64,000 bases of DNA from Bispira polyomma (lineage: Eukaryota). Shown here piece by piece: positions 14,593 to 62,722 of this stretch (the stretch's first letter is position 1; every line of letters starts with the position of its first letter). A program made the translations under genes and the position numbers. Under the pieces are notes generated by a model. It worked only from the letters and a program-made list of their open reading frames with translations, made no database searches and was not told the origin of the DNA. The DNA lies in the NCBI GenBank assembly GCA_965649765.1, contig OZ287749.1:7502001-7566000 (forward strand). The letters run 5' to 3'.

Positions 14593-14699
14593 GGGGTGGT
14601 ATTCACAAAAGGACTAAGCCAAGACTTTGTCTTAGATTTAGTATACTTGTGCACTAGATCTGAGATAAGTCTTGGCTTAGCCCTTTGTGAATACCACCC
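14593..14699. mobile_element. MITE family 2, ~107-bp near-palindrome (TIR GGGTGGTATTCACAAA)
   Basis: Ends are reverse complements; related copies at ~19082-19190, ~25551-25673 and 44922-45773. Confidence 0.8.
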
Positions 14700-15996
14700 T
14701 AGGTTATTTGTTTAGACTAAGGCCCTCTGTGAATACCACCCTGGGTTATTTGTTTGGACTTAGGCCCTTTGTGAATACCACCCTAGGTTATTTGTTTAGA
14801 CTTGGGCCCTTTGTGAATACCACCCTAGGTTATTTGGTTAGACTTGGGCCCTTTGTGAGTACCACCCTGGGTTATTTGTTTAGACTTGGGCCCTTTGTGA
14901 GTACCACCCTAGGTTATTTGGTTAGACTTGGGCCCTTTGTGAGTACCACCCTGGGTTATTTGTTTAGACTTGGGCCCTTTGTGAGTACCACCCTAGGTTA
15001 TTTGGTTAGACTTGGGCCCTTTGTGAGTACCACCCTGGGTTATTTGTTTAGACTTGGGCCCTTTGTGAGTACCGCCTTGGGTTATTTGGTTTGACTTGGG
15101 CCCTTTGTGAGTACCGCCCTAGGTTATTTGTTTAGACTTAGGCCCTTTGTGAGTACCGCCCTGGGTTATTTGGTTAGACTTGGGCCCTTTGTGAGTACCG
15201 CCCTGGGTTATTTGTTTAGACATGGGCCCTTTGTGAGTACCGCCCTGGGTTATTTGTTTAGACTTAGACCCTTTGTGAATACCGCCTTGGGTTATTTGTT
15301 TAGACTTGGGCCCTTTGTGAGTACCACCCTGGGTTATTTGTTTGGACTTGGGCCCTTTGTGAGTACTACCCTGGGTTATTTGTTTAGACTTGGGCCCTTT
15401 GTGAGTACCACCCTAGATTATTTGTTTAGACTTGGGCCCTTTGTGAATACCACCCTAGGTTATTTATTTAGACTTGGGCCCTTTGTGAGTACCACCCTAG
15501 GTTATTTGGTTAGACTTGGGCCCTTTGTGAGTACCGCCCTGGGTTATTTGTTTCGACTTGGGCCCTTTGTGAGTACCGCCCTAGGTTATTTGTTTAGACT
15601 TAGGCCCTTTGTGAGTACCGCCCTGGGTTATTTGGTTAGACTTGGGCCCTTTGTGGGTACCGCCCTGGGTTATTTGTTTAGACTTGGGCCCTTTGTGAGT
15701 ACCGCCCTGGGTTATTTGTTTAGACTTGGGCCCTTTGTGAGTACCGCCCTGGGTTATTTGGTTAGACTTGGGCCCTTTGTGAGTACCGCCCTAGGTTATT
15801 TGTTTAGACTTAGGCCCTTTGTGAGTACCGCCCTGGGTTATTTGGTTAGACTTGGGCCCTTTGTGAGTACCGCCCTGGGTTATTTGTTTAGACTTGGGCC
15901 CTTTGTGAGTACCGCCCTGGGTTATTTGGTTTGACTTGGGCCCTTTGTGAGTACCGCCCTGGGTTATTTGGTTAGACTTGGGCCCTTTGTGAGTAC
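14680..15996. repeat. 42-bp tandem satellite, about 31 copies, derived from the right end of MITE family 2
   Basis: Unit TAGACTTGGGCCCTTTGTGAGTACCRCCCTRGGTTATTTGKT; first unit overlaps the MITE TIR. Confidence 0.95.
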
Positions 15997-16858: not shown

Positions 16859-17083
16859 GGGCATTGCGCTTCACAATCATTGGTCTCTCACCTCTGGGCG
16901 GCGTGAGTTCGAATCCCGTCGATGCCTATGTGGGAAAGGTGGTAGTTCCTTACTGTGGGCCGCTGGTTTCAGTGCAGAACCTTGACCATCTGTATGCAGT
17001 GTTTTCTCCAGTGTTTCCAACTACCCGTCCCAATATAACCTACTAAAAGGTACTAGAGTGGACGTTAAATATTCAAATTCAAA
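16859..17083 (+). mobile_element. tRNA-derived SINE family A, 5'-truncated
   Basis: B box GAGTTCGAATCC, TTCAAA tail, 16-bp TSD TCCATCTAGCAGACAG (16843, 17084); near-identical to copies at 55715 and 56214. Confidence 0.9.
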
Positions 17084-20366: not shown

Positions 20367-22587
20367 TTTTTTTTTTTTATTTCTTTTTTTTTTACTTAAC
20401 TAAACGTATAAAATTTTTTTAACAATCTCTGCACACTTAAATAGTCACTGAATACATATGCTTATTGAAAAAAAATAAAATTTTTTTAAACAACAATAAA
20501 AAGATAAAGCAAAGCCTTGTTTTAAACCTCAATTTCTTAAATGTCTATACCTGTAAAAATATTTTCCCACATTACCCACCTTTTATTAAAGATATCGGTT
20601 TGAGAATTAATTATCGAGAGTGTCTTTTGTTCTAAAAATTTTCTTTTTGCTTCCTTCTGCAGGTAATAGATATTAAGTGGAAAGTTTTTCTTGGAGCACC
20701 AATAAATATATCTTCTTATTACCAAAAGTATCAAGTTCAATGGCCAAAAATGTCTGTCTAAAGATAGATAGCCAAATAGTTTTGTAGTGTTGCTCATTTT
20801 TAAGTGTATTCCTAGCTTATTTGTGATCCATTGTCTAACATTTTCCCATAGTTGAACAACTTGTGTGCAATCACAATACAAATGCTCAACGCTCTCTGCA
20901 TGTTGCTTACAAAAACTACATTCATTATTTGTTGATATTTTTAACTTTTTCAGATAATCTTTAGTTCCCAAAATTTTATAAAGGATTCGGCAATGAAACC
21001 GAATAAGTTTATTGTCCTGTATACTCTTAAAACATATTCTATAAACCAAAGCCCACCTATCTTCTATCTCAATATCTGTGTACTCATCTCTAAATATGTC
21101 TCTCCATATTATTTCGCAAAGTGGTTTTTCTTTTGGGTTGGCCCTATTGTAAACATTGTAAAATTTCTTGCATCCTTGATAACTTTGTATAACTGCATTC
21201 AAATGTAATGGATATGTTGGCTTTTCAAATACCCATGGAGACTTACTTGCATGCTTTGAAATAAAGGATTTAACATTTAGTTTTACTGTATAGTAGTTCA
21301 AGATGTTAACATTGCAGTTAAATTTGTGATTAATCTCATCAATAGTCAAAATTTCTCCATGTAAATCAATGATATCCCCTATCATATATATTCCACTTTT
21401 GTACCAATCTAAAAAAAATGTAGGGTTATCAAAAATATGCGAGTTTTACCAAATGCAAGTCCTCAAAATATCCGAATTAGAGGTGCAGGTTTGTTTCTTA
21501 CATAAATCTACCCAATATTCTAGAACATTTTGCCAAAACTTATTGTGGGTTTTTTTTTCAAAATTGTGTTATACCACTCATTGCCAAAGGTTGTGATATG
21601 GTTAATGTTTGTATACAGCTCATTAAATAATTTCCACCATTGAGAGCTTGATGAAGTTAGCAATTTTTTTTATCCAACTTACTTTGAGAGCTTTTTCAAA
21701 GTTATAGATATTTATCATTTTTATCCCACCTTGGATGTAGTTTGAACAAACAGTGGACCTCTTTATTTTGTCAGGTTTTCCATTCCACAAGAAATTATAC
21801 AAAATATTATTTAAAGTTTTCATAAAAGAATCTGACCTTTGTATTGATTTTAACAGGTGGATGGATACATTAAGAAATTATAGTTGTCTTTATTATTGTT
21901 ATTTTACCAAATGGTGTTAAATATCTATTATTCCATTTTTTTACTTCTTTCTTTATATTTTGTAAAGCTTTTTCATAGTTTAGCCCTGGTATTTCATTTA
22001 ATTTTGTTGAAAATTCAAGTCCAAGCATGGTAAATTCTGTCTTTCCCCATTCAAGTTTTACAGATACGTTTAGCTTATCTCTACAAAACCGTTTTCGACC
22101 GATCCAAATCATCTTTGTCTTCTCTTTGTTCATTCTCAAACCAGATATATTCCCAAAAATTTCTAAGGTGTTCAAAGCTGCTTGTAAGGAGTGCTGACTA
22201 CCATCTAGTAGCAAAGTGGTGTCGTCCGCAAACTGTGTTAGTCTAAATTCTGCCTTATCAATTACAATCCCAATTATATGTGTGTTTATTTTAATTAATA
22301 CTGCTAATATTTCGGCGGCGATTAGGAATAGATACGGTGAAATTGGGTCGCCTTGACGGCATCCTCTTTTTATAGGAATCTCTTTGGATAAAAATCCACA
22401 TTGTAAAACATAAGCCGTTATATCTGTGTTAAAAATTTTTATCCATTGCATTAGATTCTCACTGTAGCCAAAATATGTCAAAACTTTATATAAAAATTTC
22501 CAAGAAAGAGAATCGAAAGCCTTTTCAAAATCAATGAGCATCAAAAGGCCTTCAATGTTCTTAATTTCTGTTGCATGTAAAATATCA
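20367..22587 (-). mobile_element. 5'-truncated L1/Tx1-clade non-LTR retrotransposon (broken RT + C-terminal Cys/His region)
   Basis: RT motifs LIDFEKAFDS, RGCRQGDPISPYLF, QFADDTT; CSFC..ESVEHL..C; ORF split into three pieces; poly(A) seen as a T-run at ~20365-20393; TSD TTAACATTTGTT at 20355-20366 and 22588-22599. Confidence 0.93.
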
Positions 22588-22653
22588 TTAACATTTGTTA
22601 GATTTTGAGTCAATTTTAAGATGTTGAATATGCTTATCATTGACATTTCTTAG

Positions 22654-22838
22654 ATTGAAGAACACACAAAGATTCTCAGTGAACAGGCTCTAAATACACC
22701 GATGAGCAGCGAGACGAGTCTAACCAGCACAGACAGTGGCGCCCCGGCGGTGAAAAAGGCGAAGGCACAACCTAAAGTGTTAGCGCGGGGAGGAGCGAGG
22801 AAAACACTGCTAAACTGGGCACAGCGGGCAGTTACTAG
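22654..22838 (+). CDS. SYNE1: Ser-rich CH1-CH2 linker and CH2 first helix (IEEHTKILSE...GARKTLLNWAQRAVT-R)
   Basis: CTTAG / GTGAGT, phase 0-2; long linker typical of nesprin/calmin. Confidence 0.93.
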
Positions 22839-23018
22839 GTGAGTGGTTGTTATGGTATAAAGAGATTTACAGCGGATGGTTACTAGGTGAGTGGTTGTTA
22901 TGGTATAAAGAGATTTACAGCGGACGGTTACTAGGTGCGTGATTGTTATAGTATGAGGGGATTTACAGTGGGGGTTACTAGGTGAGTCTTTGTTATAGTA
23001 TGAAGGGATTATACAGGA
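22821..23018 (+). repeat. 48-bp array spanning donor 22839, 4 copies
   Basis: GTTACTAG|GTG at 22839, 22887, 22935, 22982. Confidence 0.9.
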
Positions 23019-30160: not shown

Positions 30161-30646
30161 CTCTGGGCAAATGTATCTGGGCACTGATATACCGTAACGA
30201 CCTTAAAAACCCTCTACTTCCTGTAAAACAAACACTAACTAACCCTCTTAAAAAACCCCTGCATAGGCTCACTTTTATATCTCTTGATATGGATCGTAAA
30301 ACTTTGTATGTGTGCAGAGAAAACCATATTACGCAAACTTGAGACGCGGTATTAACTTAGATACTTCTGCTATATTGTATAACTTAAAAACTTTTTGAAA
30401 ACTTTGTTGATTGCTTATTAGATAGTCTTGTTTGTGTGTTTTTTCTTCGCTTGGAAATGTTCAGTAAATTAGTAAGTTACTATTTGCAAGGATAGAGAGC
30501 AAAGGTAGAGGTAAACATCTTGTGATACCAATAAAACACTACATAATGGTAAAAAATATGTTCCAAAGTATAAAGTTTTAAGAGATTTACATATATAGAA
30601 AAAAACAAAAAACACTCTCACAAACTACCAGTTATTGTATTTGAAC

Positions 30647-32148
30647 ATGTCGTCACGACATACACCAATGGACGTAGAACAACGTCCCTCTACACCCGTT
30701 AAGTCTAAACGGTCATATGGTGCATCTAGGCGGGACGAGGAGGAGGATGTGGAGTCACATGATTTGAAACCAAAGAAACGTCATGACAGCAAGTATAAGT
30801 CGGACATAGCGATATCTCCGCATCGATACTACTCCCCATCAGGCCAGCCCCTGAGTGAGACCAAGGGGTACTCCCCGGAGAGAAGGGGCCATCTGCCCTC
30901 AAAAGGTGGGGGGCGCTCCCCGGAAAGGGGGCATCTACCCTCAAAAGGTGGGGGGCACTCCCCGGAGAGGGGGCCCCGCAGTAGTAGGACCAGCAACCGA
31001 CAGCACGACGGGAGTCATGACAATAGACCCTCTAAACAACATCACAGTAAAAAGATGGAGAAACCATCAGAGACAAAACACCGTCACTCTTCTGATACTG
31101 GTCGTCATAGGGATGAGGGAAGTCCACGACATCATCACCAACACCACCAGTATAGTACAGAGTACACTAAGTCTGATGGTAAGCGGTACAGCAGTAGTAC
31201 CAGGGACAGGCATGATTCTAAGGAGGACAGACAACACAGCAAGCATCCTCATCATCACGATAAGTCTCAGTCTCCGACACACAGGGAGATATCAGGGAAG
31301 TTTGAAAGACGGCTGGATGACAGTAGCCACCACAGCATTAGGCCTCAGTCTACGTCCATATTAGAAGGGAGCAGCAAGCGTACCCGTCCCAGTAGTAGGA
31401 CCAGTGAGCCGAGTGGCAACTTTGAGTATATCAGACCGTCGTCGAAGAGTCTGAGCAGAGAGGAGCTGCATTCTTCTGGTGGTGGTCACCACGGCGACAA
31501 GCATCGCCTAGAGAGAGGCAAGAGTCAGAGCACGGCCCAGTTGGAGAGGGTTGGCAGCAGCAGCTCGGGGCGGGAACAACGCAGTGGTCGCCATGGTGAC
31601 AAGCATCATCTGGAGAGAGGCAAGAGTCAGAGTACAGCACAGCTACACATGGTCGACGGCAGCAGGGAACGTCTTAGTGGTCGCCATGACTACCGCTCCA
31701 CGGACACCTTACTACACAAGAGGTCAAGCCGATCTAGTGCTAAGAGTATGGAGAACTTATTAGACCGGTCTGTGTCTCCGGCCCGTTCGGACACCAGCAC
31801 GGGAAGTAACAAGAAGCTCATGCTGAAGTACATGATACACGAGGTGCGGGAACTGAAGCGACAGATTGACCCAAACGAACCCGACATCCACATCCGTCAG
31901 AAAGGTCGAGGTCATGACCAGTCCGGATACGAGGGCTCTGGATCCGACCTATCAGATGGAGAGGGAGGGGGTGGGAGGAGTAGGCTGGGGCAGTCATTGC
32001 GGGAAGAACCACAGAGGAGGCAGCTACCCACTACCCCACAACAGCTCAACAGGACCTACCCTCCCAGGGAGAGGGCGTCTAAGGGGCACGGAAAGCATAG
32101 GAGTTTTACTAAGGAGGAGAAGAAACAGATGCTACAGCTTCTTAAAGA
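30647..32148 (+). CDS. Intronic ~500-aa Ser/Arg/His-rich ORF: probable internal first exon of nesprin (or a nested single-exon gene ending at TAA 32152)
   Basis: 1.5-kb GC-rich uninterrupted ORF from ATG 30647. It ends AAA GA|GTAATG, a phase-2 donor compatible with the acceptor at 34352. Confidence 0.7.
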
Positions 32149-33104
32149 GTAATGAGTTTATTATATAGAGTTATTTATTTGTATGTAGAGTTTTCTCTGT
32201 ATTCTTGGATTTTATATGTATTTGTTCTGTTCACCTAGCCACAAATTACGTTGATTCTATTATTTGATGTCACTTTACAGAAAACAAAGCATATTAAAAC
32301 ATAGGAATATTGTACTTTCACATATAAGAAATAATAATAATTATATTTCTCTAGCGTCAAGATTCAGTCAAGTGTCTGTTCCAAGGCGCTTTACAAATGG
32401 CAAGTCACTTAAAACACATACTCTTACAACTTATTTGTCAAGAAATATAATGGTGGCATAAATAAATAAATAAGTTTAATTTTTATCTAAAAGCGTCAAC
32501 AGAAACAGATGTCTTTTAGTAGAGGTTCCATAATGTTGGTGAACCGAAAATGCACAACCACCAAATGTTTTGCATTTTGACTTTCGAATCAAAAGTTGGA
32601 GCTTATTACTGGAGCAGGTTATCTGACAAAATTCCCTTTTTGTCTTGCTGTCCTAACATGTTTGGATCATAAAGGTTATACTGTACGTAATATTGCAAGT
32701 ATGTTTCAGCTTGATGCTGTCTCTTTGAAAATAGATCAATTTGTTTTTTGCTCACTTTTTTATTTGTGAGACAAAAGGATTAAGTTCAAACTCAATCAAT
32801 AGATTTCACCATTTTCTGTCAAAAGGGTTTCTCAATAAGCGTAATTGAATCAGAAAAAAGGTGGAATGGTAACAATGTGTACTTTATTCTATAGAAAAGT
32901 GTCAACTCCCACAATTCATTGGCTAACAAGGTTCACTAATGCATGGAAAGGCTTTTTTGAATACAGATTTAATGGCATTTGTGACAAATGACATTTGTAA
33001 ATAAAGTCTTGAGTTGTATGAATGCATGAGATTCATTGATTTTGATGGTCAATGTAAAGTCTTACAGACAATGATTATATGGAAGGTAGAATCTACTTGG
33101 TTTC

Positions 33105-34351: not shown

Positions 34352-34548
34352 GAAATACGGCATAGAAGTGCGCGACTTTGGCCCGAGTTGGCGCGACGGA
34401 CATGCCTTTAATGCAATGATCCACAACATTAGACCCGAACTGGTGGACATGCATCGACTGCCGAACTACCCTAACAGAGAGAACCTGGAGCGAGCATTTA
34501 ATGCTGCGGAGCATGAGCTGGGGATTCCTCGCTTACTGGATGCTGAGG
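34352..34548 (+). CDS. SYNE1: CH2 exon KYGIEVRDFGPSWRDGHAFNAMIHNIRPELVD...LGIPRLLDAE
   Basis: TTTTATAG / GTAAGG, phase 2-1, classic CH2 motifs. Confidence 0.96.
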
Positions 34549-34960
34549 GTAAGGATTGCTCAGTTAAGTGGTCATTTATTGACTGTCCCCAACTTGGAGG
34601 ACTCTGAGGGTAAGGGTTGGTCAGTTAAGTGGTTGCTCATTGACTCTCCCCAATTTAGAGGACTCTGATGGTAAGGATTGGTCAGTTAAGTGGGCACTCA
34701 TTGACTGTCCCCAACTTAGAGGACTCTGAGGGTAAGGGTTGGTCAGTTAAGTGGTCACTCATTAACTGTCCCCAACTTAGAGGACTCTGAGAATAAGAGT
34801 TGGTAAGTTATGTGGTCATCAATTGGTCATCCTCTGCTTACTGGACTCTGGGGGTAAGGCTTGGTCAGTTGGTGATTCCCTTCTTACTGGACATTGAGGG
34901 TAAGGCTTGAGTAGTGACCAATTGGTGATCACCCTCTTACTGGAGCCTGAGTGTAAGGCT
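34523..34960 (+). repeat. 61-bp array spanning donor 34549, about 8 copies
   Basis: TGAGG|GTAAGG-like at 34549, 34610, 34671, 34732, 34854, 34900. Confidence 0.9.
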
Positions 34961-38300: not shown

Positions 38301-38486
38301 CAGTAGAACCTCGACTATCTGAATATATTTGGGAAAGCAAGATTTTGTTAGAAGCTTAATAAAATAGAAGATGCGGTTTTTATTGTATAAAACATTAGGA
38401 ATGCATGAAACTTGAGGAGAGTGGAAATTTGTTCAAAAATTTAAATATTTGAAATATTAGAAAGTTCAGATAATGGAGGTTTACTG
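38301..38486. mobile_element. MITE family 1 copy ending 30 nt before the giant-exon acceptor
   Basis: TA|CAGTAGAACCTC...GGAGGTTTACTG. Confidence 0.7.
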
Positions 38487-38516
38487 TTGTTTTTGCTCTG
38501 TCACAATCTCTTACAG

Positions 38517-41500
38517 CCGCAGCCTGAGCCCCTCTGCCTGTTTGGGCAAGATTCCACCCTCATAGCCCACCTCAGTCCCCATAGGCCCCAGTATGAGGAT
38601 CGCTATAGTCCCCTGCCCACCCCAGCCCCGAGACAACTCAGTCCGTCACTCTCCTCCCCTGGATCCCAACGGCTAGTCTCCCCGAGAGAAAACATGGCCA
38701 GATCTCAGCAGGAAGTGGGAGAGAATGTCCCTGAGACCCTGCCACCTTTGGGTCATACAAGGCCATCTGGCTCAGTAGCGTCTCAGGATTCAGGCCTATT
38801 AGGCAGCAGATCGGTGATTGCACACTTCAGACCATCCTCTCTGTCACTGAGTCCACAGTCTGTATCCAGTGCCACCATCCATCATCAGTCCAGCTGTAAA
38901 CTAGACATCATCTTGGCTTCTCCAAGGTCAGGGTGGAACAGGACCAGCACAGGTTCAGATGACCAGGTCTTTAGGTACAGCGACGACTTCCAATCAGAGT
39001 TCTCTTATGGCTTACCAAGGTCAGGGATGAAAATAGACCCTCAGAACGTGGACTTTGCAAAGAGTTTACACCAGGAGTTGCTCAAACTCCCAAGACGAGT
39101 TGAGAACCCCCGTTCAGCACCTTCATCCCCAACGCTTCAACGCAGACGAGCTTTATGTAGTACAGAGGATGTTCACTACCTGAGCAGTGGCCACAGAATC
39201 AAAAGCTACGAGTTTGGCGACAGTTCCTCCCTGTGTCATGGCAGACTGACTGGGGAGAAGTATTTTACGTACCCAGAAAGGTCTAGTAGTATGGAAGATT
39301 TGAACCCGCAAAGAAGAGTATTGAGCTGGTTGAATCTATCAGAGAATTACAACATACCTCCCCCTTCACCTGTACCTGAACATATACAGAAGATATTCAA
39401 TAGCCAGTGGGAGTTTAAGTCCACCACACCAGGTAAAAAGCCCTTAGAACATGCACCTGGTATACAGGCACACAGTATCAATGCAGTGGATATTCCAGGT
39501 GATACTTTAGATAACAATAATAGCACAGTTGAAGCAAGTCTACAAAACAAACCAGTGGGTGGAATGGAATCCCATGCATTTGATGCATCCTGTCTCAGTG
39601 TTGTTATCCCTGGAGAAGGTATGCTCTCAAGCCTAGATCCAAGCAGTAACTATACCTCACTACAAGAGTCTCATATTAAGGGCATACCTGTCTCACCTGC
39701 TTCAAGGCACACCTCAAATATAGCTACTGCTCAGCCGCAATATGCGATACTGCACAGTCCTTGTGATTCTTTAAGATCGATGTCTTCCTCCTCAGAATCG
39801 GATGTGTTAGAAGGGGGCAAGTCTAGAAGACATAGAAAGCTTATGAGCATACAGCTGGGTGAAGTCGTCACAAACAGGATCATTGAAACTGTAGAGGAGG
39901 TGATCTTGTCCATCGCAGAACCCAAAACAGGGGATGTTCAAGTAGAGTCTGTCAGTGAAGTTATAGAAGAGGTGAGAGGTGAAGAAGGTAAAGTAAGTCA
40001 AATACAAGGGGTGAACACCTCAGACCTGTTGCCTTATACCACAGAGGAAGAAGAAGTAGGTAATGTACATCTAGGGAGTACAAAGCTCTATGCAACTGAA
40101 CATATTGAAGAAAGTTTGATAGCAGAAAAGGAAGGCTTTAACCGCATTAACCTAGAAGTCAGGGTAGATGAACATGGTGGTGGGAATGAAGAATTGGCAG
40201 ATCTGAATATAGATGCCCTCAAGTCTGAAAAAACAAGACAAAGGAGCAAAGATGATATGGATACTGTACCAGGTGAAACATCTGACAGAAATGTTTCTGA
40301 GGATCTGGACATACATGTAGTTACAAATTGCTCCGATGGAGGGGAAGGAAAAAGTACAGATGAACTGGTAGGACAAGATCAGGAGGACAATAGTCTGGTC
40401 AGGAAAAATGGACAAATATTCCTAGATGAAGAACAGTTCCAAGTTGTGGAGTCAACCAAGAAAGATGAAGGTGAACCACCTGCTGTTAGAGACAGATTAC
40501 CAAGTACTGAAAGGTATGAGGAGCTTCTAGTTCTGGGGAAAAGCAGTAAAACTGTGACTGTTAATGCAAAGACTTTACATAGGGATGTCAAAATTATAGA
40601 AACATCAAGGGATGACTTCCAAATGCAAAATACAGTTAATGATAATACCAAAATTATTGGTAGCCAACAAGGTAGGAAGTCAGTGGGGACCATAAGTGAG
40701 AACCAAAAGTCAGATGCAGAAGATGTCAGTAAAGGTGGACAGAGTGAACATGATGAGGTCCAAAGTACAAGTAGTTCAAGAGATGTGAATTTGCAAAGGG
40801 ATAGGAAAACTCTTGAAGCACAAGATGTCAGTGATAATCTGACACAGTATGGAGAGAGTCAGGGTAAAGAACTGCCTGATATTGGAGGTACATCTTTGAG
40901 TACAGCTTCTAGTTACAAAGAAGGTACTGATATCTTGAAGGCAGGGAAAATAGCAGAAATCACTAAAATAGATGAATCTGGTAAAACAGATGTGGCTCTT
41001 GGTGAAATGAGTCTAACATTAGTTACAGCTGGAATTCAGGGAATTGGTAAAGAAATGGGCAAGACTGAACTAAAGAGTACAGAGAGATTTGAAGAGAAGA
41101 TAGTTCTAGTGATGGACAGAAGAAGGAAACGGATAAGACTGCCTTCAGGAAAAAGGTGGACAAGAAAAACTCAACTCTCAGAAATGTCTGTCAGGGTCAC
41201 GGAGGAAGTAGTTGAGCAGGAAAAAGAGGTACCTGATGTCAAGGCTGAACTGAAAGGAACAACAGAGAGTGATAGTATGGTTAAGTCAAAACATGGCATA
41301 GGGTTTGTTGATAGCCTGGTTACCAGTATATCAAATGGTAAAGGAAATGATATAAAGGAAGACACCATTGGAAGTGGTGAACCATCTGCTACTAATGTCA
41401 GCCCAGATACCCATAAAAAGGAAGAGTCTGACAATGACCAGTTGAAGCTGGATGTCTCTGTAGCAGATAGGGATACTGGAACGGATGCATCAACAGAAAA

Positions 41501-43901
41501 TAATGCTGTAGAAGTCACAGTTGATCAAACTGGGCTGAAAATTACTGAAATATTAGAAGATGAGACAGTTGAGGTAATAGATATTGGAGAATTTGATGCA
41601 GACATAATATTTCCTGTTGGGCATGATAACGGCATTAGTGAGGTTGTTGATGAAGATGCCAAAAACATGGCAGATGACAAAGATCCAGTGTCCAGTAATG
41701 CTATAGAGAATATAGAGGCACAAGATGGACAAAACGCTAATGATGTAAAAGATGAGGTATCTGCTATGAAAGGTAGAGATAGTGAAGACGATGAGTCCTT
41801 GGGTACAAAGGAAGGAGAGATCCTTCAGGCAGGAGGTTTAGGAAGCCCAGACAATGTGGGACAGAGTCTCCCTGGTGACATGGTAAGTCAGGAGAGCATA
41901 GAATCCAGGATTTTAGTCCCAAATGCAACACCACAGGGTTTAGAAGAGACTGGCACAACAGATATGACTGAAGGTGTATCAAAAGCTGAAGGGCCTATAT
42001 ATAGAGAGCCGGATACGATAAGCAAAGATATGGAGGATATTGTTGATACAATTGCTGAACTCAGTATTAAGGAGCAAGAGACTGGGTCACTTATTAGTGG
42101 AAGCTCAGTGGATGGGGTAACTGGTCAAGGGTCACCTGTACCTGAATTAAGTTTTACTATGAAAAAGGAAATGGGTGATGCTTCCCTAGATGAACCATCA
42201 GTAGAAGCCACTAGAGTGGATGATAGTGTCATTGCGTGCACCACAGAGGATACCCTAGTAGTTACCCTAGACAACCAAGATGGTCAGGGATCACCTGTAT
42301 CTGATTTGAGTTTAGCTATGATAAAGGAAATGGATGAAACTTCCCCAGATGAACCATCAGTAGAAGACATTGGAGTGGATGATAGTGTCATTGCATGCAC
42401 CACAGAGGATACCCCAGTGGGATCAGATGTACCTGATTTAAGTGTGACTCTGATGAAGGACATGAATGATACTTCCCCAGATAAACCATCAGTAGAAGAC
42501 ATTGGAGTGGATAATAGTGTTATTAAGCCCACTACAGAGGATACCCCAGTGGTTACCTATGACAACCAAGATGGTGAGGGATCACATGTACCTGACTTGA
42601 GTTTGACTCTGATAAAGGAAATGGATGATACTTCTTTAAGTCAGCCCTCAGTAGAAGACATTGGAATGGATGATAGTGTCATTGCTTGCACCACAGAGGA
42701 TACCCCAGTGGTTACCTATAACAACCAAAATGGTAAGCGATCACATGTACCTGATTTGACTTTGACTCTGATAAAGGAAATGGATGATAATTCTGTAAGT
42801 CAGCCCTCAGTAGAAGACATTGGAGTAGATGTCTGTGTCAGTGAGAGTATTACAGAGGATACCCCAGTGGTTACCCCTGAAAACCAGGATGTACCTAAAT
42901 TGATTGGGGAATTGGTGAATGAAATGGGTGATACTTCTCAAGATAAACTATCAGCAGAAGGTGCTGGAGTAGACATTGGTGTCAGTGAGTGCAATACAGA
43001 GGATAGTCTAGTTGTTGCGTCTGACAACCAGGATGGTCAAGAATCCTCTGTCCCTGAAATTGATGGTACTTCTCTAGATAAACCATCAGTAGAAAATACT
43101 GGAGTAGACACGGGTGTCTTTGAGTGTATTATAGAGGATATCCCAGTGATTACCCTTGACAACACAGATGCTACTCGGTCAGTGTTACATGATGGCAGAG
43201 AAGTGATTCGGGATAGCCCTGTACCAGTTGACCAAAAAGAGGCAAAACCTGAACAACGGCAGGCAGTAGGGTCGATGGATATGGAAGATGGTAGACCTAG
43301 TCAATCAGTGTTACATGATGGCAGAGAAACATCTTTGGATATCCGAATACCAGTTGACCATAAAGAGCCTGATCTACCAGAGGTGGTAGGGTCGGTAGAT
43401 AAGGGCAATGGTAGACCTACTCAGTTGGTTTTAACTGATGGTAGAAAAACATCTCTGGATACCTCAATATCAGTTGACCATAAGGAGCCTGAACTACCGC
43501 AGGTGGTAGGGTCGGAAGTATTAGAAGATATACCTACTCAGTCAGTGTTACATAATGATAGAGAAGAGATTCTTGATAGTCCTGCATCAGATGGCCATAT
43601 AGATCCAAAGCCTGAACAACTGCAAGTGGTTGGGTCGGTGGATGTTGCAGATGGTACACCTGATGGCAGAGAAACATCTCTGGATAGCCCTGTACCAGTT
43701 GACCACAAAGAGTCTGAACTACCGCAGGTGGTAGGATCGGTAGATGTAGCAGATGGTAGACCTACTCAGTCAGCGTTACGAGATGGTAGAGAAACATGTC
43801 TGGATACCTCAATACCAGTTGACCACAAAGAGACTGATTTACCGGAGGTGGTAGGGTCAGTGGATGCAGCAGATGAGAGCCCCTCACCAGACACCAAGGA
43901 G
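38517..43901 (+). CDS. SYNE1: Giant (5385 nt, 1795 aa) low-complexity, mostly acidic exon; cassette 38517-43901, or terminal exon reading to TAG 44006
   Basis: TTACAG acceptor in phase 0 with the 1839-codon ORF; GAG|GTGATA phase-0 donor at 43902; both flanking exons are phase 0. Confidence 0.75.
42123..43160 (+). repeat. Coding ~159-nt (53-aa) tandem repeat in the giant exon, about 6-7 degenerate copies
   Basis: GQGSPVPDLSLTxxKEMDDTSxDEPSVEDIGVDDSVIACTTEDTPVVTxDNQD units; first two start at 42123 and 42282. Confidence 0.85.
43170..43875 (+). repeat. Coding ~120-nt (40-aa) tandem repeat in the giant exon, about 6 copies
   Basis: PTQSVLHDGRETSLDxxxPVDHKEPELPQVVGSVDxxDGR units. Confidence 0.85.
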
Positions 43902-43924
43902 GTGATACACTATGTTAGTGCTAA

Positions 43925-44584
43925 GCATGCAGGCATGGAGGAGGTGGACTGTGTTTACCTTGTGGAGGGAGGTTTAGTGGCTGCTGCTTTTGTTGAAACG
44001 GCCTAGCATGTTTGGCTGGCATGGGCTGATGCAGTATTAAGACGTTAATCCTGTGTGTTTTCTAGCTTTGGTGAGAGCATAAGAATCCCTCTTTTGGTGG
44101 TGAAGCTTTGGAATGCTATAGTCTCTCATTACCATGCAGACCTCTAACATTCCTGCAGTTTATGCCTATATACTCCCACTCTTACAAGTGTTTGTCCAGG
44201 TTTTTATCAAAATGCAATACATGTTTTTTGAGATGCAAGTTTTCTTAAACTACACTGGTAATACAGTTTTGGTATGCAATATTTGGACCCTGAGTAGTTG
44301 AAATAATGCATGTGATAAAAAATACATGGACAAACATTTTGGGATAGTATTAAAACCTTTTGACTTTTTCAGGATAAGGAAACTCCCTGTTCATTACCAT
44401 TTTAAGCAATACCTTTATAATGCATGGGTGCATGTTGTATAGATAGTCTTATATTAAAATGTTCTACAGTGATTTTAACTAATGGTTTTAAGAAGCTTTT
44501 TCATGTTTGGGGGATTGTGGCTCTTATTGTTTTGTTATATATTTTATATGGTCATGTATTTTCTTTTTAGGGTTGTGGTGCATG
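43925..44584 (+). promoter_or_regulatory. Cluster of (T)GCATG Rbfox-type splicing elements downstream of the giant-exon donor
   Basis: GCATG at 43925, 43933, 44006, 44019; TGCATG at 44307, 44421, 44429, 44579. Confidence 0.55.
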
Positions 44585-44921: not shown

Positions 44922-45773
44922 AGGGGTGGTATTCCAAAAAGGGCTAAGGCATGACTGTCTTACATCTAGTATACATTTGTGCTAGATTTAAGACAAAGTG
45001 AATACCACACCAGACTTACAAAGTGCTCGAGTACTAAAGTACTCAACCTTAGAAAACATTTATATTTTCTCTGAAGGAAAATAAATGTCTTTTTCTTGAT
45101 GCCGGGTGACCATTAAGTGGTGTCCAATGTGTTTTTATCTTCTGTATTGTGTTTATAAAAAACTCTACATCTTATTTATTATTTCTGTCCCCCCATCTCT
45201 GCATGGACTCCCACTGTTTGTCTGCTGTTTTGTCTGGTGAGCATATACCCAGCTAGCTTTGCCGTTTTGATGTTTGCTGTGGTGTGTATTTTGTGTGTTG
45301 CTAATTCCTTTGCTGTTCTCCCCCATTATTTTCTTGTAAATATGAGACTAAAACCTGTTATGAACATGGCCTCGGGTGTGGTATTCATGAACGAGCTGAG
45401 CCAAGTTTTGGCTTAAATCCAGTATACCTTTTGTCCTAGCTTTAAGCTAAGACTTGCCTAATTCTGTTAGTGAATACAGGCCTGGCGGCGGTATTCACAA
45501 GAAGGCAAAGCCAAGACTTTGTCTTAGGTCTAGTATACTTTCAGGCTAGATTTAAGACAATATCTAGACTTTGGCTCATTTATAAATACCGTCCCATGTC
45601 TACGGTGTTGTGGTTGTTATGACTCATCTTTAAACTTTATTGTTTGGGGATTAAAAATCTTAGGCGGTATTCACAAAAGGACTACAAGTCTAGACATTGT
45701 CTTAAATCTAGCACAAAAATATACTAGATCTAAGACAAAGTCTTGGCTTAGCCCTTTTCTGAATACTGCCACC
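44922..45773. mobile_element. Cluster of four MITE family 2 copies (~44922, 45374, 45484, 45663)
   Basis: Repeated GGTATTCAC/GTGAATAC ends with shared palindromic core. Confidence 0.7.
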
Positions 45774-48665: not shown

Positions 48666-48821
48666 CTTGTTACTGATGTCAAACATCAGCTGGAGGAAGC
48701 GAGACGTCTGGCCGAGCAGGAACAGAGCGAGTTTGACGATCTGTGTGAGTGGATGAATGATGCACTCAATACACTGACCATAGTGGACAGGCCAGTGGAG
48801 GACAGAGACCAGGAGTATCAG
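48666..48821 (+). CDS. SYNE1: Rod exon LVTDVKHQLEEARRLAE...RDQEYQ
   Basis: TTTTCAG / GTAACT, phase 0-0. Confidence 0.9.
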
Positions 48822-49385
48822 GTAACTGGCCCTGTGACTGACCATATAGTGGACATACCTCAATACACTGACTATATAGTGGACAGACCTCCATACACTG
48901 ACCATAGTGGATAGGCCAGTGGAGGACAGAGACCAGGAGTATCAGGTAACTGGCCCTGTGACTGACCATATAGTGGACATACCTCAATACACTGATCATA
49001 TAGTGGACAGACCTCCATACACTGACCATATAGTGGTCATACCTCAATACACTGACCATATAGTGGTCAGACCTCCATACACTGACCATATAGTGGACAT
49101 ACCTCCATACACTGACCATATAGTGGACATACCTCAATACACTGACCATATAGTGGACAGAGCTCAATACACTGACCATATAGTGGACAGACCTCAATAC
49201 ACTGACTATATAGTGGACAAACCTCAATACACTGACCATATAATGGACAGAGCTTAATACACTCACCATATAGTGATATAGTGGACAGAGCTCAATACAC
49301 TGACCATATAGTGGACAGACCTCCATACAATGACCATATAGTGGACAAACCTCTATACACTGACCACATAGTGGATAGGTCAGTA
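48766..49385 (+). repeat. 124-bp duplication of exon end + donor, plus a 30-bp minisatellite derived from exon sequence
   Basis: Identical GAGTATCAG|GTAACTGGCCC at 48822 and 48946; unit ACTGACCATATAGTGGACAGACCTCAATAC. Confidence 0.92.
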
Positions 49386-50397: not shown

Positions 50398-50562
50398 ACG
50401 CGGTTATGGCAGTGGAAGCTGGACAGTAATCTACCGGGACGATTGGGTCAGATTGGTGACTGGCTTAACCGGGCGGAAGAGATGGTGGATAATGAAGTGG
50501 ACTACGCACAGCAACACGAAGACACAGTGCAAAATATACGACATAGGGTGGAGGAACACAAG
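50398..50562 (+). CDS. SYNE1: Spectrin-repeat exon TRLWQWKLDSNLPGRLGQIGDWLNRAEE...VEEHK
   Basis: TTCCAG / GTGAGT, phase 0-0; nesprin-type LDxxLPxxLGxIGxWL motif. Confidence 0.94.
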
Positions 50563-51335
50563 GTGAGTGTAAGATATAGGGCACAGGGTGGAGGGATATA
50601 AGGTGAGTGTAAAATATAGGGCATATGGCGGAGGGATATAAGGTAAGTGTAAAATATAGGGCAGAGGGTGAAGGGATAAAAGGTGAGTGTAAAATATAGG
50701 GTAGAGGGATACAAGATTGGAATAAAATATAGGTCATAGGGTAGATGGATACAAAATTAGTGTAAAATAAAGGTATTAGTGCGAAGGGATACAAAGTAAG
50801 CCAAAGGTATATGCACAGAAACCCGAAGACATGGTGCAGAAAATATGATACAGAGTAGAAGAACGCAAGGTGAGTGTAAAATGTAGGGCAGAGAGATATA
50901 AGGATGTATAAAATATAGGTCGTAGGCTGGAGGAATACAAGGTTAAAATCAAATACAAGTCATAGGGTAAAGGGATACAAATTTACTGTAAAATATATGG
51001 TGGATGGATGTTAGGATAGTGTAAAAAGTAGGTCATATGGGGGAGGGATACAAGGTTAGTATAAAAAGTAGGTCATAGGGTGGAGGGATATAAGAACGGT
51101 GTAAAATATAGGTCAGAGGGTGGAAGGATATTAAATATAGTGTAAAAAATAGACCATAGGGTGGAGGACTACAAGATTAGTGTAAAATACAGGTCATTTG
51201 GTGGAGGATATATGAACAGTGTAACATAGGTCAGAGGGAGAAGGAATATTAGTATGGTGTAAAAAGTAGACCATAGAGAGTAGGAATGAAAGAATAATGT
51301 ATAAAACATAGGAAATAAGTTGGAGGAATACATTG
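50531..51335 (+). repeat. 40-bp degenerate array spanning donor 50563
   Basis: AAG|GTRAGTGT at 50563, 50603, 50643, 50683; longer exon-end copy near 50813-50880. Confidence 0.9.
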
Positions 51336-51550: not shown

Positions 51551-51832
51551 GGTTTTTTCAAAGATCTGGATGCCATCAAACAGGAGTTCAGCCATTATCA
51601 CCACACAGGGGCCTGTGAAGGCGCTGCCTGTCCCCGCCCTCAGCTAGAACGCATGAATGTACGCTTTAACGAGCTTACCGTGAAGGAAGTGTCATTACTA
51701 CGGCGACTGGAGTATGAGGAGCTTAAGTTCAGATTGCTGGCGTTCTTGGTGGTCGCCGAGGCCAAACTAAAGACAGTACAAGTGAAATACGGTCACCAAG
51801 AGGAAGTCTACGCAATGTTACAGGACTATATT
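51551..51832 (+). CDS. SYNE1: Spectrin-repeat exon GFFKDLDAIKQEF...LKFRLLAFLVVAEAKLK...MLQDYI
   Basis: TTTTCAG / GTAAGT, phase 0-0. Confidence 0.94.
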
Positions 51833-52930
51833 GTAAGTCTATGCAATGTTACAGGACTATATTGTAAGTCTACGCAATGTTACAGGACTATATTGTAAGT
51901 CTATGCAATGTTACAGGACTATATTGTAAGTACACAATGTTACAGGACTATATTGTAAGTCTACACAATGTTACAGGACTATATTGTAAGTCTACACAAT
52001 GTTACAGAACTATATTGTAAGTCTACACAATGTTACAGGACTATATTGTAAGTCTACACAATGTTACAGGACTATATTGTAAGTCTATGCAATGTTACAG
52101 GACTATATTGTAAGTGTACACAATGTTACAGGACTATATTGTAAGTCTATGCAATGTTACAGGACTATATTGTAAGTGTACACAATGTTACAGGACTATA
52201 TTGTAAGTCTATGCGAGGTTACAGGACTATATTGTAAGTCTACACAATGTTACAGGACTATATTGTAAGTGTACACAATGTTACAGGACTATATTGTAAA
52301 TCTATGCAATGTTACAGGACTATATTGTAAGTGTACACAATGTTACAGGACAATATTGTAAGTCTATGCAATGTTACAGGACTATATTGTAAGTGTACAC
52401 AATGTTACAGGACTATATTGTAAGTCTATGCGAGGTTACAGGACTATATTGTAAGTCTACACAATGTTACAGGACTATATTGTAAGTGTACACAATGTTA
52501 CAGGACTATATTGTAAATCTATGCAATGTTACAGGACTATATTGTAAGTGTACACAATGTTACAGGACAATATTGTAAGTCTATGCGAGGTTACAGGACT
52601 ATATTGTAAGTCTACGCGAGGTTACAGGACTATATTGTAAGTGTTACAGGATTATATTGTAAGTGTTACAGGACTATATTGTAAGTGTACGCAATGTTAC
52701 AGGACTATATTGTAAGTGTATGCGATGTTACAGAACTATATTGTAAGTCTACGCAATGTTACAGGACTATATTGTAAGTGTACGCAATGTTACAGGACTA
52801 TATTGTAAATGTACGCGAGATTACAGGCCTATATTGTAAGTGTACACAATGTTACAGGACTATATTGTAAGTGTGCGCGATATTAGAGGACTATATTGTA
52901 AGTCTACGCAATGTTACAAGACTAGATTGT
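51804..52930 (+). repeat. 31-bp array spanning donor 51833, about 36 copies
   Basis: Unit CTACRCAATGTTACAGGACTATATT|GTAAGT. Confidence 0.95.
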
Positions 52931-53139
52931 ACGTGAAAGAATTATTTTTGTATGTAGGTATTAGTGAGCCAATCAATACCTGTACGCAAAGTTACAGGAT
53001 TAAATTGTACCATTGCGTGTTTTAGATATTAAACTATGCTTCAATCTACTTTTGGATTCTATTTCTATGTCTACATTAACTGTGCTCCTAACACAAAGAC
53101 TGAAGCAATCTTTAAAGAATCACTTGATAATCTGATGTT

Positions 53140-53371
53140 AGGACTAAGACCTAGTTATGTCAGTACAGTATCCCAGTATTCCAGCCCTTTACTGATGTAG
53201 TCTGTTGTTGTTCAACACTAACACCTAGTTTTCTTAGTACAGTGAACAAGTATTCCAGCGGTGTACTGTTGTAGTGAGTTGTTATTTAACACTAAGACCT
53301 AGATTTCTGAGTAAAGTATCCCAGTATTCCAGCCGTATATTGATGTATGTTCTTTTTGTTATTGCAGGACT
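53140..53371 (+). repeat. 74-bp array, 3 copies, last copy supplies the acceptor of exon 53368
   Basis: CTAA.ACCTAG at 53144, 53218, 53292. Confidence 0.8.
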
Positions 53372-53464
53372 TTGTCCATGCCAAGAAGCTGTTTGACCAG
53401 TATGACATCACATACAAGGACTGTAAACACAGGGCAGAGGCCTACAAGAAACTGGAACCCAAGA
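53368..53464 (+). CDS. SYNE1: Spectrin-repeat exon DFVHAKKLFDQYDITYKDCKHRAEAYKKLEPK
   Basis: TTGCAG / GTGAGT, phase 0-1. Confidence 0.92.
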
Positions 53465-53739: not shown

Positions 53740-54085
53740 ATACATGTCTTCTACAGGATAGTTATTTGTGGTTAATCTGCAAAGAACTTGAGTGTGTCAA
53801 CATGTCCCTTGATGAGGGGACCGGCTACCGTATATTGATGAATTTGTTTAACCTTGATGATAGATCTATGTTATATTCTCTAAAACTACATTGTCTCTTT
53901 CCCATTCGGTAGACTCCAAGGCACTTTGTCAAGTCCCTTGATGAGGTAACTAAGCTACTGTATATTAATTAATTAATTTACCTTGATGACAGATGTGTGT
54001 TATACTCTCTAGTAATACATGTCTCTTTGCCGTTCGGTAGACTCCAAGGAACTTGAGCATGTCAACAAGTCCCTGGATGAGGTGA
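53740..54085 (+). repeat. ~128-bp duplication spanning acceptor 54040
   Basis: TTCGGTAG|ACTCCAAGG at 53912 and 54040; more degenerate copy near 53780. Confidence 0.85.
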
Positions 54086-55714: not shown

Positions 55715-55965
55715 CGGGTCGCGGTGGCCTAGTGGTTAGCAAGCATTGCGCTTCACAATCACTGGTCTCTCACCTCTGGGTGGCGCGAGTTCGAATCCTG
55801 TCGATGCCTATGTGGGAAAGGTGTTAGTTCCTTACTCTGGGCCGCTGTTTTCAGTGCAGAACCTTGATCAACTGTCTGCAGTGTTTCCTCCAGCGTTTCC
55901 AACTACCCGTCCCAATATAACCTAAACAGGTACTAGAGTGGACGTTAAATATTCAAATTCAAAAA
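55715..55965 (+). mobile_element. tRNA-derived SINE family A, full length
   Basis: A box TGGCCTAGTGG, B box GAGTTCGAATCC, TTCAAA tail, TSD CC(A/G)AATGTCTAA. Confidence 0.9.
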
Positions 55966-56213: not shown

Positions 56214-56492
56214 CGGGGGGGGGGGGGGGGGGGGGGCTGCAGTGGCCTAGTGGTTAGCAAGCATTGCGCTTCACAATCACTGGTCTCTCACCTCTGGGCG
56301 GCGTGAGTTTGAATCCCGTCAATGCTTATGTGGGAAAGGTGGTAGTTCCTTACTGTGGGCCGCTGGTTTCTCTGCAGAACCTTGACCGACTGTATGCAGT
56401 GTTTCCTTCAGCGTTTCCAACTACCCGTCCCAATATAACCTACTAAAAGGTACTAGAGAGTGGACATTAAAATATCCAAGTTCAAATTCAAA
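56214..56492 (+). mobile_element. tRNA-derived SINE family A with expanded 5' poly-G
   Basis: A/B boxes, tail, TSD TCCAACAGAATA (56202, 56493). Confidence 0.9.
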
Positions 56493-58877: not shown

Positions 58878-59081
58878 GTCCTGTTTATTCAGCGCCGTTT
58901 TGATGAAGTCACTGAGCGAGCCAAGTCACTCGTTACACAGGAAGTGGTGGACAAATCGCGGCGTGAGTACAATGTGGGGCTGGACGGTCTGTCGCAGTGG
59001 TTACAGAGAAACGATGATTTGCTGCAGGAGAAACTACCGTGTACACATGCCGCAGTGAGGGAACATATACAGGGTCTAGAT
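58878..59081 (+). CDS. SYNE1: Spectrin-repeat exon VLFIQRRFDEVTERAK...REHIQGLD
   Basis: CTGTAG / GTAAGT, phase 0-0. Confidence 0.92.
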
Positions 59082-59571
59082 GTAAGTATTGGCAGGGGTG
59101 TGGTCTGGTAAACTGAGGGGTGCTAGGTTCAGATCCTGGTAGTGGTAGGGGAGTATACACAGGCCACAGTGAGGGAACATGTACAGGGTCTGGATGTGAG
59201 TATTAGGAGGGGAGTGGTCTGGTAAACTGAGGGGTGCTGGGTTTAAGTCCTGGTAGTGGTCTGGTAAATTGAGGGGAGGTTGGGTTCAAGTCCTAGTACT
59301 GCTCAGGTAATGATCTGGTAATCCGGGGGTGCTGGGTTCATGTCCTAGTTATGGTCTGGTAATGGTCTGGTAATCAGGGGGTGCTGGGTTCATGTCCTAG
59401 TTATGGTCTGGTAATGGTGTGGTAATCAAGGGGTGCTGGGTTCATGTCCTAGTTATGGTCTGGTAATGGTCTGGTAATCAGGGGGTGCTGGGTTCATGTC
59501 CTAGTACTGGTAGAGGAGTGTACACACGCCGCAGTGAGGGAACATGTACAGAGTCTAGATGTAGGTATTGG
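59040..59571 (+). repeat. Compound array spanning donor 59082
   Basis: CAGTGAGGGAACAT.TACAG.GTCT.GAT|GT at 59082, 59196, 59561, with inner ~52-bp repeats. Confidence 0.9.
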
Positions 59572-61342: not shown

Positions 61343-61486
61343 GGATATTTCAAGGACATTACCTACTACAAACAAATGCTGGAGAGTAAGAACAAGGTGT
61401 TCCAGAGAGTAAACAAAAACGGGGCCAAATACCTGAATGTGAGGGAAATGGAGCAACAGATGGTGGAGTTAAACCACGCCTTTCAG
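61343..61486 (+). CDS. SYNE1: Spectrin-repeat exon GYFKDITYYKQMLESKNKVF...ELNHAFQ
   Basis: TTTCAG / GTGAGT, phase 0-0. Confidence 0.92.
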
Positions 61487-61720
61487 GTGAGTCAAAGTCA
61501 ATTTTATCAACTAAGTGGATGGAGGAACAAATAGTGGAGTTAAATCACACCTTTCAGGTGAGTGAGAGTCAATTATATCAACTAAGTTGATGGAGGAACA
61601 AATGGTGGAGTTAAATCACACCTTTCAGGTGAATCAAAGTCAAGTATATCAACTAAGTGACTTGAGGAACAGATGGTGGAGTTAAACCACACCTTTCAGG
61701 TGAGTCAAGTCAAGTATCTC
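61449..61720 (+). repeat. 71-bp array spanning donor 61487, 4 copies
   Basis: CCTTTCAG|GTGA at 61487, 61558, 61629, 61700. Confidence 0.92.
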
Positions 61721-62041
61721 AAATATACCTACTGAAATACTGAAAAATCACTAAATATTAATAATCTTAGTTCTGCTGACGATTAGAGTCAATTTTTGCT
61801 TTGTAAAATGAAAAACCCATTTCTATTTAATGCAGTGTATTAATTTAAAAAATATATTGTTTAGATCTAGATCTGCCTCTATTGAATATTTATAGAACCC
61901 GATGGTGACCACCTGTGTACGTACTGAATGCCCTGGTACCCAACATTATGTTTACCCCATTTAATTAAGATTTCCAACCCTTTCAAACAAAGGCGTGTGT
62001 GACTCCCTATGTATACTGTGTAATGTTTTTCCTGTTTCTAG

Positions 62042-62423: not shown

Positions 62424-62722
62424 AGGCGGCATTTGACCTATTATCCCCTCTGTTTTGGCGGTATGTGACCTACTGTACCTTTCTTTACTTAGTATCTGAC
62501 CTATTTTTCCTCCTATTTAGACAGTATTTGACCTGGTTTACCTTTCTTCGGGTAGTATTTGACCTATTTTCCGTCTTCATTTACGCAGTTTTTGACCTGG
62601 TTTACCTTTCTTAAGGTGGTATTTGACCTGGTTTATCTTTCGTTAGACTGCATTTGACCTATTTCTTGTCTATGTAGGCGTTATTTGACCTACTTTTCTT
62701 TTTTGCTAGGCGGTGTTTGACC
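62424..62722 (+). repeat. ~33-bp degenerate array spanning acceptor 62709, about 9 copies
   Basis: AGGCGGT.TTTGACC + pyrimidine tract units; the last copy is the exon start. Confidence 0.8.

Follow-up and report, generated by a model that had tools for sequence, protein, structure and literature searches.

The nesprin-like gene within the 64,000-nucleotide stretch of Bispira polyomma DNA analyzed here (in the following: the window) contains an intron in which the 5' splice site is not only present at the exon border but repeated dozens of times behind it. This arrangement raises the question which of the sites is used, how the array came into being and whether it serves any function. With TRF, a tandem repeat of period 31 is recognized at positions 51804-52931 (37.0 copies, 88% matches, score 1654). 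When the array is split at the donor, 36 donor copies are found between 51833 and 52898, 33 of them reading ATT/GTAAGT and three ATT/GTAAAT (slash at the splice junction), and a degenerate 37th copy, ATT/GTACGT, follows at 52929. The repeat unit is composed of the final 25 exon bases and the six donor bases, and 33 of the 36 units are 31 nt long, one comprises 29 nt and two comprise 22 nt. An earlier note on this DNA, made from the letters alone, had described the last ~25 nt of the exon plus GTAAGT as recurring every 31 bp, mostly as ATT/GTAAGT, and is borne out in this respect. Its count of about 35 consensus 5' splice sites is right as far as the copies are concerned, of which there are 36, whereas the consensus holds for positions +1 to +6 only, the exon-side ATT being mismatched. 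Seventeen unit types are present in the array, a seven-unit block is found in two copies, and divergence of the units is greatest near the 3' end. The array makes up 71% of the 1,535-nt intron, and the unique intron sequence amounts to 439 nt when counted from 52929. In a comparison of the exon end and the first units with the genome, all 15 matches (15/15) fell inside the array, in a search that skips common words. The array is of local origin from the gene's own exon and is not a dispersed element.

Table 1. Features of the array-bearing intron and its flanking exons (positions are those of the window).
Feature	Position	Strand	Basis or remark
Coding exon, 282 nt, phase 0/0, nesprin-1/SYNE1/MSP-300-like; final 25-29 nt are the repeat source	51551..51832	+	PF25034, homologues
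AAGT microhomology in the exon, equal to donor +3..+6; start of the lag-31 match	51804..51807	+	Putative role in slippage
First donor GTAAGT, probably the authentic one	51833..51838	+	PF25034 register, 12/14 long homologues
36 tandem units with 35 spare donors	51833..52928	+	TRF, unit splitting
Degenerate final donor copy GTACGT, probably what remains of the original start of the intron	52929..52934	+	Ancestral state suggested by relatives
Branch-like TTGAT, pyrimidine tract and strong acceptor (91st percentile)	53340..53367	+	
Next coding exon, 97 nt, phase 0/1	53368..53464	+	PF25034 positions 31-62, gene model

The identity of the host gene is helpful for deciding where the authentic junction lies. 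The 3' end of exon 51551-51832 matches positions 1-29 of the Pfam family Spectrin_SYNE1 (PF25034) and the exon following 53368-53464 matches positions 61-128; a calponin-homology exon is located upstream of the array-bearing exon. The gene as modelled spans more than 200 kb. One protein-homologue search with exon 51551-51832 yielded no matches. Named homologues are nesprin-1-like or MSP-300-like and stem from a bivalve, hemichordates, lancelet and shark, and the exon shares 39% identity with the B. belcheri protein. Because PF25034 continues across the junction and 12 of the 14 long homologues join directly at this point and have no extra residues, the first donor is in register and an insertion of three residues is not wanted. 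Of the remaining two homologues, the first contains about nine additional residues, and the second continues into its own intron. The junction 51832-53368, as already given in the earlier note, is right. Three close relatives, 88-92% identical on the protein level, extend 10, 27 and ~50 residues beyond the junction, and all three feature V-S after it, as does the gene studied here, and lack the array. V-S in the relatives fits an ancestral GT[AG]AG[TC] donor and, judging from these relatives, the intron position appears to be old and the array to be lineage-specific. Very long low-complexity open frames are situated between the CH domains and the spectrin repeats, at 38445-44006 (1,853 aa, with internal coding repeats of 132-159 bp) and 30599-32152 (517 aa), and are likely giant alternative exons.

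What would happen if one of the spare donors were used can be read from translation. Donor 2 adds 31 nt and leads to a stop at the junction itself, donor 3 causes a frameshift with a stop after 67 codons, and any product of donors 4-37 runs into a TAA at codon 22. No later donor yields full-length nesprin, and splicing likely proceeds from the first one. When compared with the U1-ideal motif, exon-side ATT (-3 to -1) contributes no ideal base and the whole site matches in 7 of 11 positions. Among 565 modelled donors in the genome it ranks at the 4.6th percentile in a simple position matrix, which is probably too harsh on donors with T at -1; of 30 such donors, 16 read GTAAGT. Since the exonic part of the donor is weak and the 33 GTAAGT copies do not differ in score, leakage to spare donors is plausible. 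A RNA structure hiding the spare donors was considered and rejected (z=+1.36, 95 of 100 shuffles fold as well), and so was a coding use of the array, which has stops in all six frames and a longest open stretch of 50 codons.

As to its origin, the array was likely founded by slippage duplication across the exon-intron boundary, putatively at AAGT. The lag-31 match begins exactly at AAGT 51804, and these 4 nt are common to the exon and donor positions +3 to +6. The microhomology slip put forward in the earlier note fits provided that the ancestral donor read GTAAGT, a state suggested by the relatives, though the homology is limited to these 4 nt: the CTA following the donor was produced by the duplication and does not represent prior homology. 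Growth would then likely have occurred by unequal exchange in multi-unit steps, to which the repeated seven-unit block points. Exon definition or an oriented scanning like that in human F7 may account for the choice of the donor nearest to the exon, and leaked transcripts would be removed by nonsense-mediated decay. On the basis of the sequence, we consider it highly probable that the array is an intronic minisatellite of 36 units that arose by boundary slippage and unequal exchange and is near-neutral, with the first donor in use. Near-neutrality is likely because splicing likely uses the first donor.

The array belongs to a known class that comprises human boundary minisatellites, lancelet mirages and chicken exon stuttering. 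The human cases given in the available part of PMC1557585 include F7 IVS7 (37 bp, 5-9 copies), CBS IVS13 (15-20), IFI6/6-16 intron 2 with 25 pseudo-sites, LMNB2 and PDGF intron 4. In F7, LMNB2 and PDGF the first donor alone is used, whereas two extra sites are used in CBS and IFI6 (PMC1557585). Just as in these minisatellites, the first unit spans the exon-intron boundary and the donor is repeated unchanged along the intron. In contrast, the 36 copies exceed any case in the accessible text of PMC1557585, the unit is mostly exonic here (25 of 31 nt as compared to 4 of 37 in F7), and use of the first site, described for F7, is a prediction here. Lancelet mirages have been described for Adh3, BflGb6/BflGb9, troponin C and PGBD5, where splicing is undisturbed according to the available parts of PMC3087553 and PMC3902484. 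They share with our array and its neighbors the tandem boundary copies at either end, an invertebrate host, units of 10-160 bp and diverged cluster ends, but are single loci in those excerpts, while a rate over many genes was measured here. Chicken exon stuttering (Hron et al., 2026; PMC12954441) is defined structurally by a lateral part of a coding exon together with the splice site that is tandemly copied into the adjacent intron, as far as the available part of that article goes, and the same is found here, with the exon's last 29 nt carried exactly by two units. The dot-microchromosome is the setting of the phenomenon in chicken and not part of this definition; the GC-rich setting is not encountered here, as the array lies on a 108-Mb contig and GC in the window is 0.29-0.49 per 2 kb. 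Repeated donors do not appear in the available part of PMC10078293.

Several functional readings have to be weighed against near-neutrality. Leakage could act as a dosage dial, such that spare donors divert transcripts into stop-containing forms and copy number tunes nesprin via nonsense-mediated decay. A weak first donor followed by identical copies, the non-productive nature of every alternative and the two extra sites used in CBS and IFI6 (PMC1557585, available part) are all in line with this idea. On the other hand, F7 uses solely the most upstream site, even against stronger pseudo-sites (same source), and the array is absent in all three close relatives. In addition, a deficit of in-frame spare donors in the gene sets described below (15/77 as opposed to 171/514 in the intronic control, P=0.005, post hoc; two in-frame cases had been absorbed by the gene model) does not lie in the predicted stop-free class and was not replicated: with 6/18 in the replication set, against a prediction set beforehand, avoidance of in-frame spare donors is unsupported. 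We hold a dosage dial to be unlikely. Even less can be said for recursive splicing or the inclusion of 9-nt pseudo-exons (three residues) via internal AG. The earlier note had called the pseudo-exons formally present because of TTACAG in each unit, and the array a possible substrate for recursive splicing. TTACAG does occur 35 times in 51804-52931, 9 nt upstream of nearly every donor, and the highest-scoring of the internal sites lies at the 16th percentile of real acceptors, compared with the 91st for the true acceptor. However, the 34 internal sites that were scored have a median of 4.5 (real acceptors: median 9.1, 5th percentile 4.3), the pyrimidine share is 0.5 versus 0.69-0.81 at real acceptors, and neither yTnAy nor CTRAY branch motifs are present in the array. 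Recursive-splicing sites consist of an acceptor abutting a donor (AG/GT) within a long intron, whereas AGGT[AG]AG occurs 0 times in this intron of merely 1,535 nt. Microexons are characterized by a strong branch point and a pyrimidine tract upstream and by inserted residues that are conserved in homologues; the 9-nt pseudo-exons have a weak AG and no branch motif, and the insertion is missing from the homologues, 12 of 14 of which have no extra residues. Both variants are very improbable.

A comparably small probability is assigned to the proposal that the array works as a U1 snRNP sponge, or as a local loading pad shielding the long transcript from premature polyadenylation. Six contiguous U1-matching bases in each of 33 copies, the length of the gene and two ATTAAA hexamers directly after the array would agree with such a role. 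Yet only 7 of 11 U1-ideal bases match, AATAAA is lacking in the intron and the donor is not selectively retained, the hexamer being no better conserved than the remainder of the unit (variable positions 1/6 vs 13/25, P=0.18). Moreover, an intron is short-lived, and its 36 sites amount to little relative to the U1 pool of the cell. The sponge suggested in the earlier note is left unsupported. That a short repeat was inflated during assembly is hardly conceivable at all, even though no short-read contig spans the array and the short-read runs, three in number and all from one study, are perhaps from the assembly's own sample. An artefact is unlikely because the short-read contigs hold unit variants as well as the left junction and the array's right end, and the 17 unit types form an ordered structure. 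In two of the runs, X1 and X3, coverage of introns is even and exon joints are absent, so that both behave as DNA; they agree with the assembly. A near-neutral minisatellite spliced from its first donor is the reading we retain.

The array is one of several: of the 20 donors modelled in the window, 7 carry copies. The six further donors of the same gene are duplicated into their introns at 22821-23016, 34543-34960, 48766-49375, 50526-51330, 59042-59570 and 61448-61722, with units of 48, 61, 124, 40, 114 and 71 bp, respectively, and a 30-bp exon-derived array follows the donor copies at 48.8 kb. On the acceptor side, the start of exon 54041 recurs at 53913 (53780-54060), and a degenerate 31-bp array (62424-62710) that resembles the acceptor of exon 62710 is situated directly before it. 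A 45-bp array at another nesprin donor (L018:6915-7115, G000:C2:7582915-7583115) is in frame, free of stops and equipped with two intact GT copies. Use of the second GT would add 15 residues; the gene model chose the second, and homologue matches end at the first. A donor array of five 128-bp copies (L031:4194-4847, G000:C2:7710194-7710847) includes one unit whose in-frame 78-nt segment has an acceptor-like site as well as a donor and is a candidate exon of mirage origin, in the sense of the model in the available part of PMC3087553. Repeats of other kinds are present as well. An array of 31 copies of 42 bp (14600-15996) is clear of modelled exons and continues a short dispersed element also found near 44930-45760. 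Two minus-strand ORFs (302 and 259 aa) in an intron at 20537-22649 are presumably fragments of a reverse transcriptase from a non-LTR retrotransposon. An element of ~250 bp with a very high copy number resides at 55716-55965, 56230-56490 and 16860-17080, and its copies exhibit many C-to-T and G-to-A differences at CpG positions, suggestive of CpG methylation in this genome.

How common are such copies at exon edges? The nesprin gene was modelled over the window plus 200 kb, and 140 of 154 exons were used after 14 doubtful ones had been dropped. A word of 16 exon and 8 intron bases, searched in the own intron, recurs at 32/140 donors and 7/140 acceptors (0.03 and 0.02 hits expected from the intron-swap control, so that chance does not account for this level at donors). 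Donors represent the first unit of a local duplication in 31/140 cases as compared with 2.4% of deep-intron positions (P=5e-21), and acceptors do not differ from this background. For dynein heavy chains, 560 exons were predicted at 14 loci, of which 461 had paralogue support and 429 entered the analysis; like duplications are found at 48/429 donors and 59/429 acceptors versus a background of 2.9%, and in a replication set of nine loci (329 exons predicted, 187 kept) an intact spare site is present at 18/187 donors and 24/187 acceptors. The preference for donors in nesprin (31 vs 7 of 140, P=4e-5) is not general since it is not seen in the dyneins (48 donors vs 59 acceptors, P=0.30), nor does it appear in the replication set. 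A drive by GC content was likewise rejected: GC of duplicated deep-intron positions is 0.355 vs 0.346 in the dyneins and 0.395 vs 0.352 in nesprin, an effect that is weak at most. The density of duplication starts is 2.4-3.1 events per kb within the final 50 bases of exons, compared with 0.9 per kb in deep-intron sequence. Much of this excess may be due to neutral survival, and a conserved exonic source copy together with growing arrays that pile up against exons could generate much of it without any special mechanism; the starts at exon edges, about threefold denser, are not obviously predicted by pure neutrality.

For comparison with chicken we applied a screen in the style of the exon-stuttering study (blastn-short, restricted to the plus strand and to hits of 20 nt or more that score at least 42.1 bits, with thresholds taken from the available part of PMC12954441) to introns between two kept exons on 10 contigs, without manual curation. 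Exon-edge copies are found in 24/125, 54/353 and 16/131 introns, in total in 94 of 609 predicted introns, a rate that is provisional because the sample consists of large conserved genes and of gene models predicted in this analysis. One hit was distal, and shuffled sequences scored 26.3 bits at most. In 154 of 195 hits the copy starts within 1 nt of the exon border, and the median length is 32 nt. In the accessible part of the chicken study, 190 of 5,572 dot-chromosome introns are affected, more than 90% of the copies start at the exon border, their median is 36 bp with 1-44 copies, and the phenomenon is concentrated on GC-rich dot chromosomes and was not detected in the majority of other vertebrates (Hron et al., 2026; PMC12954441). 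Here, in contrast, the affected introns are located on large chromosomes and have a GC content of ~35%. It is a tentative and rather doubtful idea that exon stuttering is spread over ordinary, AT-rich chromosomes in this genome and four to five times as frequent as on the dot chromosomes of chicken, with a threefold edge excess that stems from a mutational process linked to splice sites or exon chromatin and not from survival alone. Should it hold, the 36-donor array would be its extreme product. A literature search, in which most subscription journals lay outside the scope, revealed no genome-wide rate of exon-edge copies for an invertebrate.

Taken by itself, the array matters little, being a long example of a class known from humans, lancelets and chicken. 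The genome-wide rate matters more. Exon-edge copies mislead gene predictors, and a copy was picked in three places in the models used here. If the rate is true, exon stuttering needs neither high GC nor microchromosomes. If about one in seven introns carries spare sites, an RNA-seq set could test the rule that the site nearest to the exon wins, for donors and acceptors, and if the stuttering reading is true, ~15% of the introns of this genome would constitute a natural test bed for exon-nearest choice at both intron ends.
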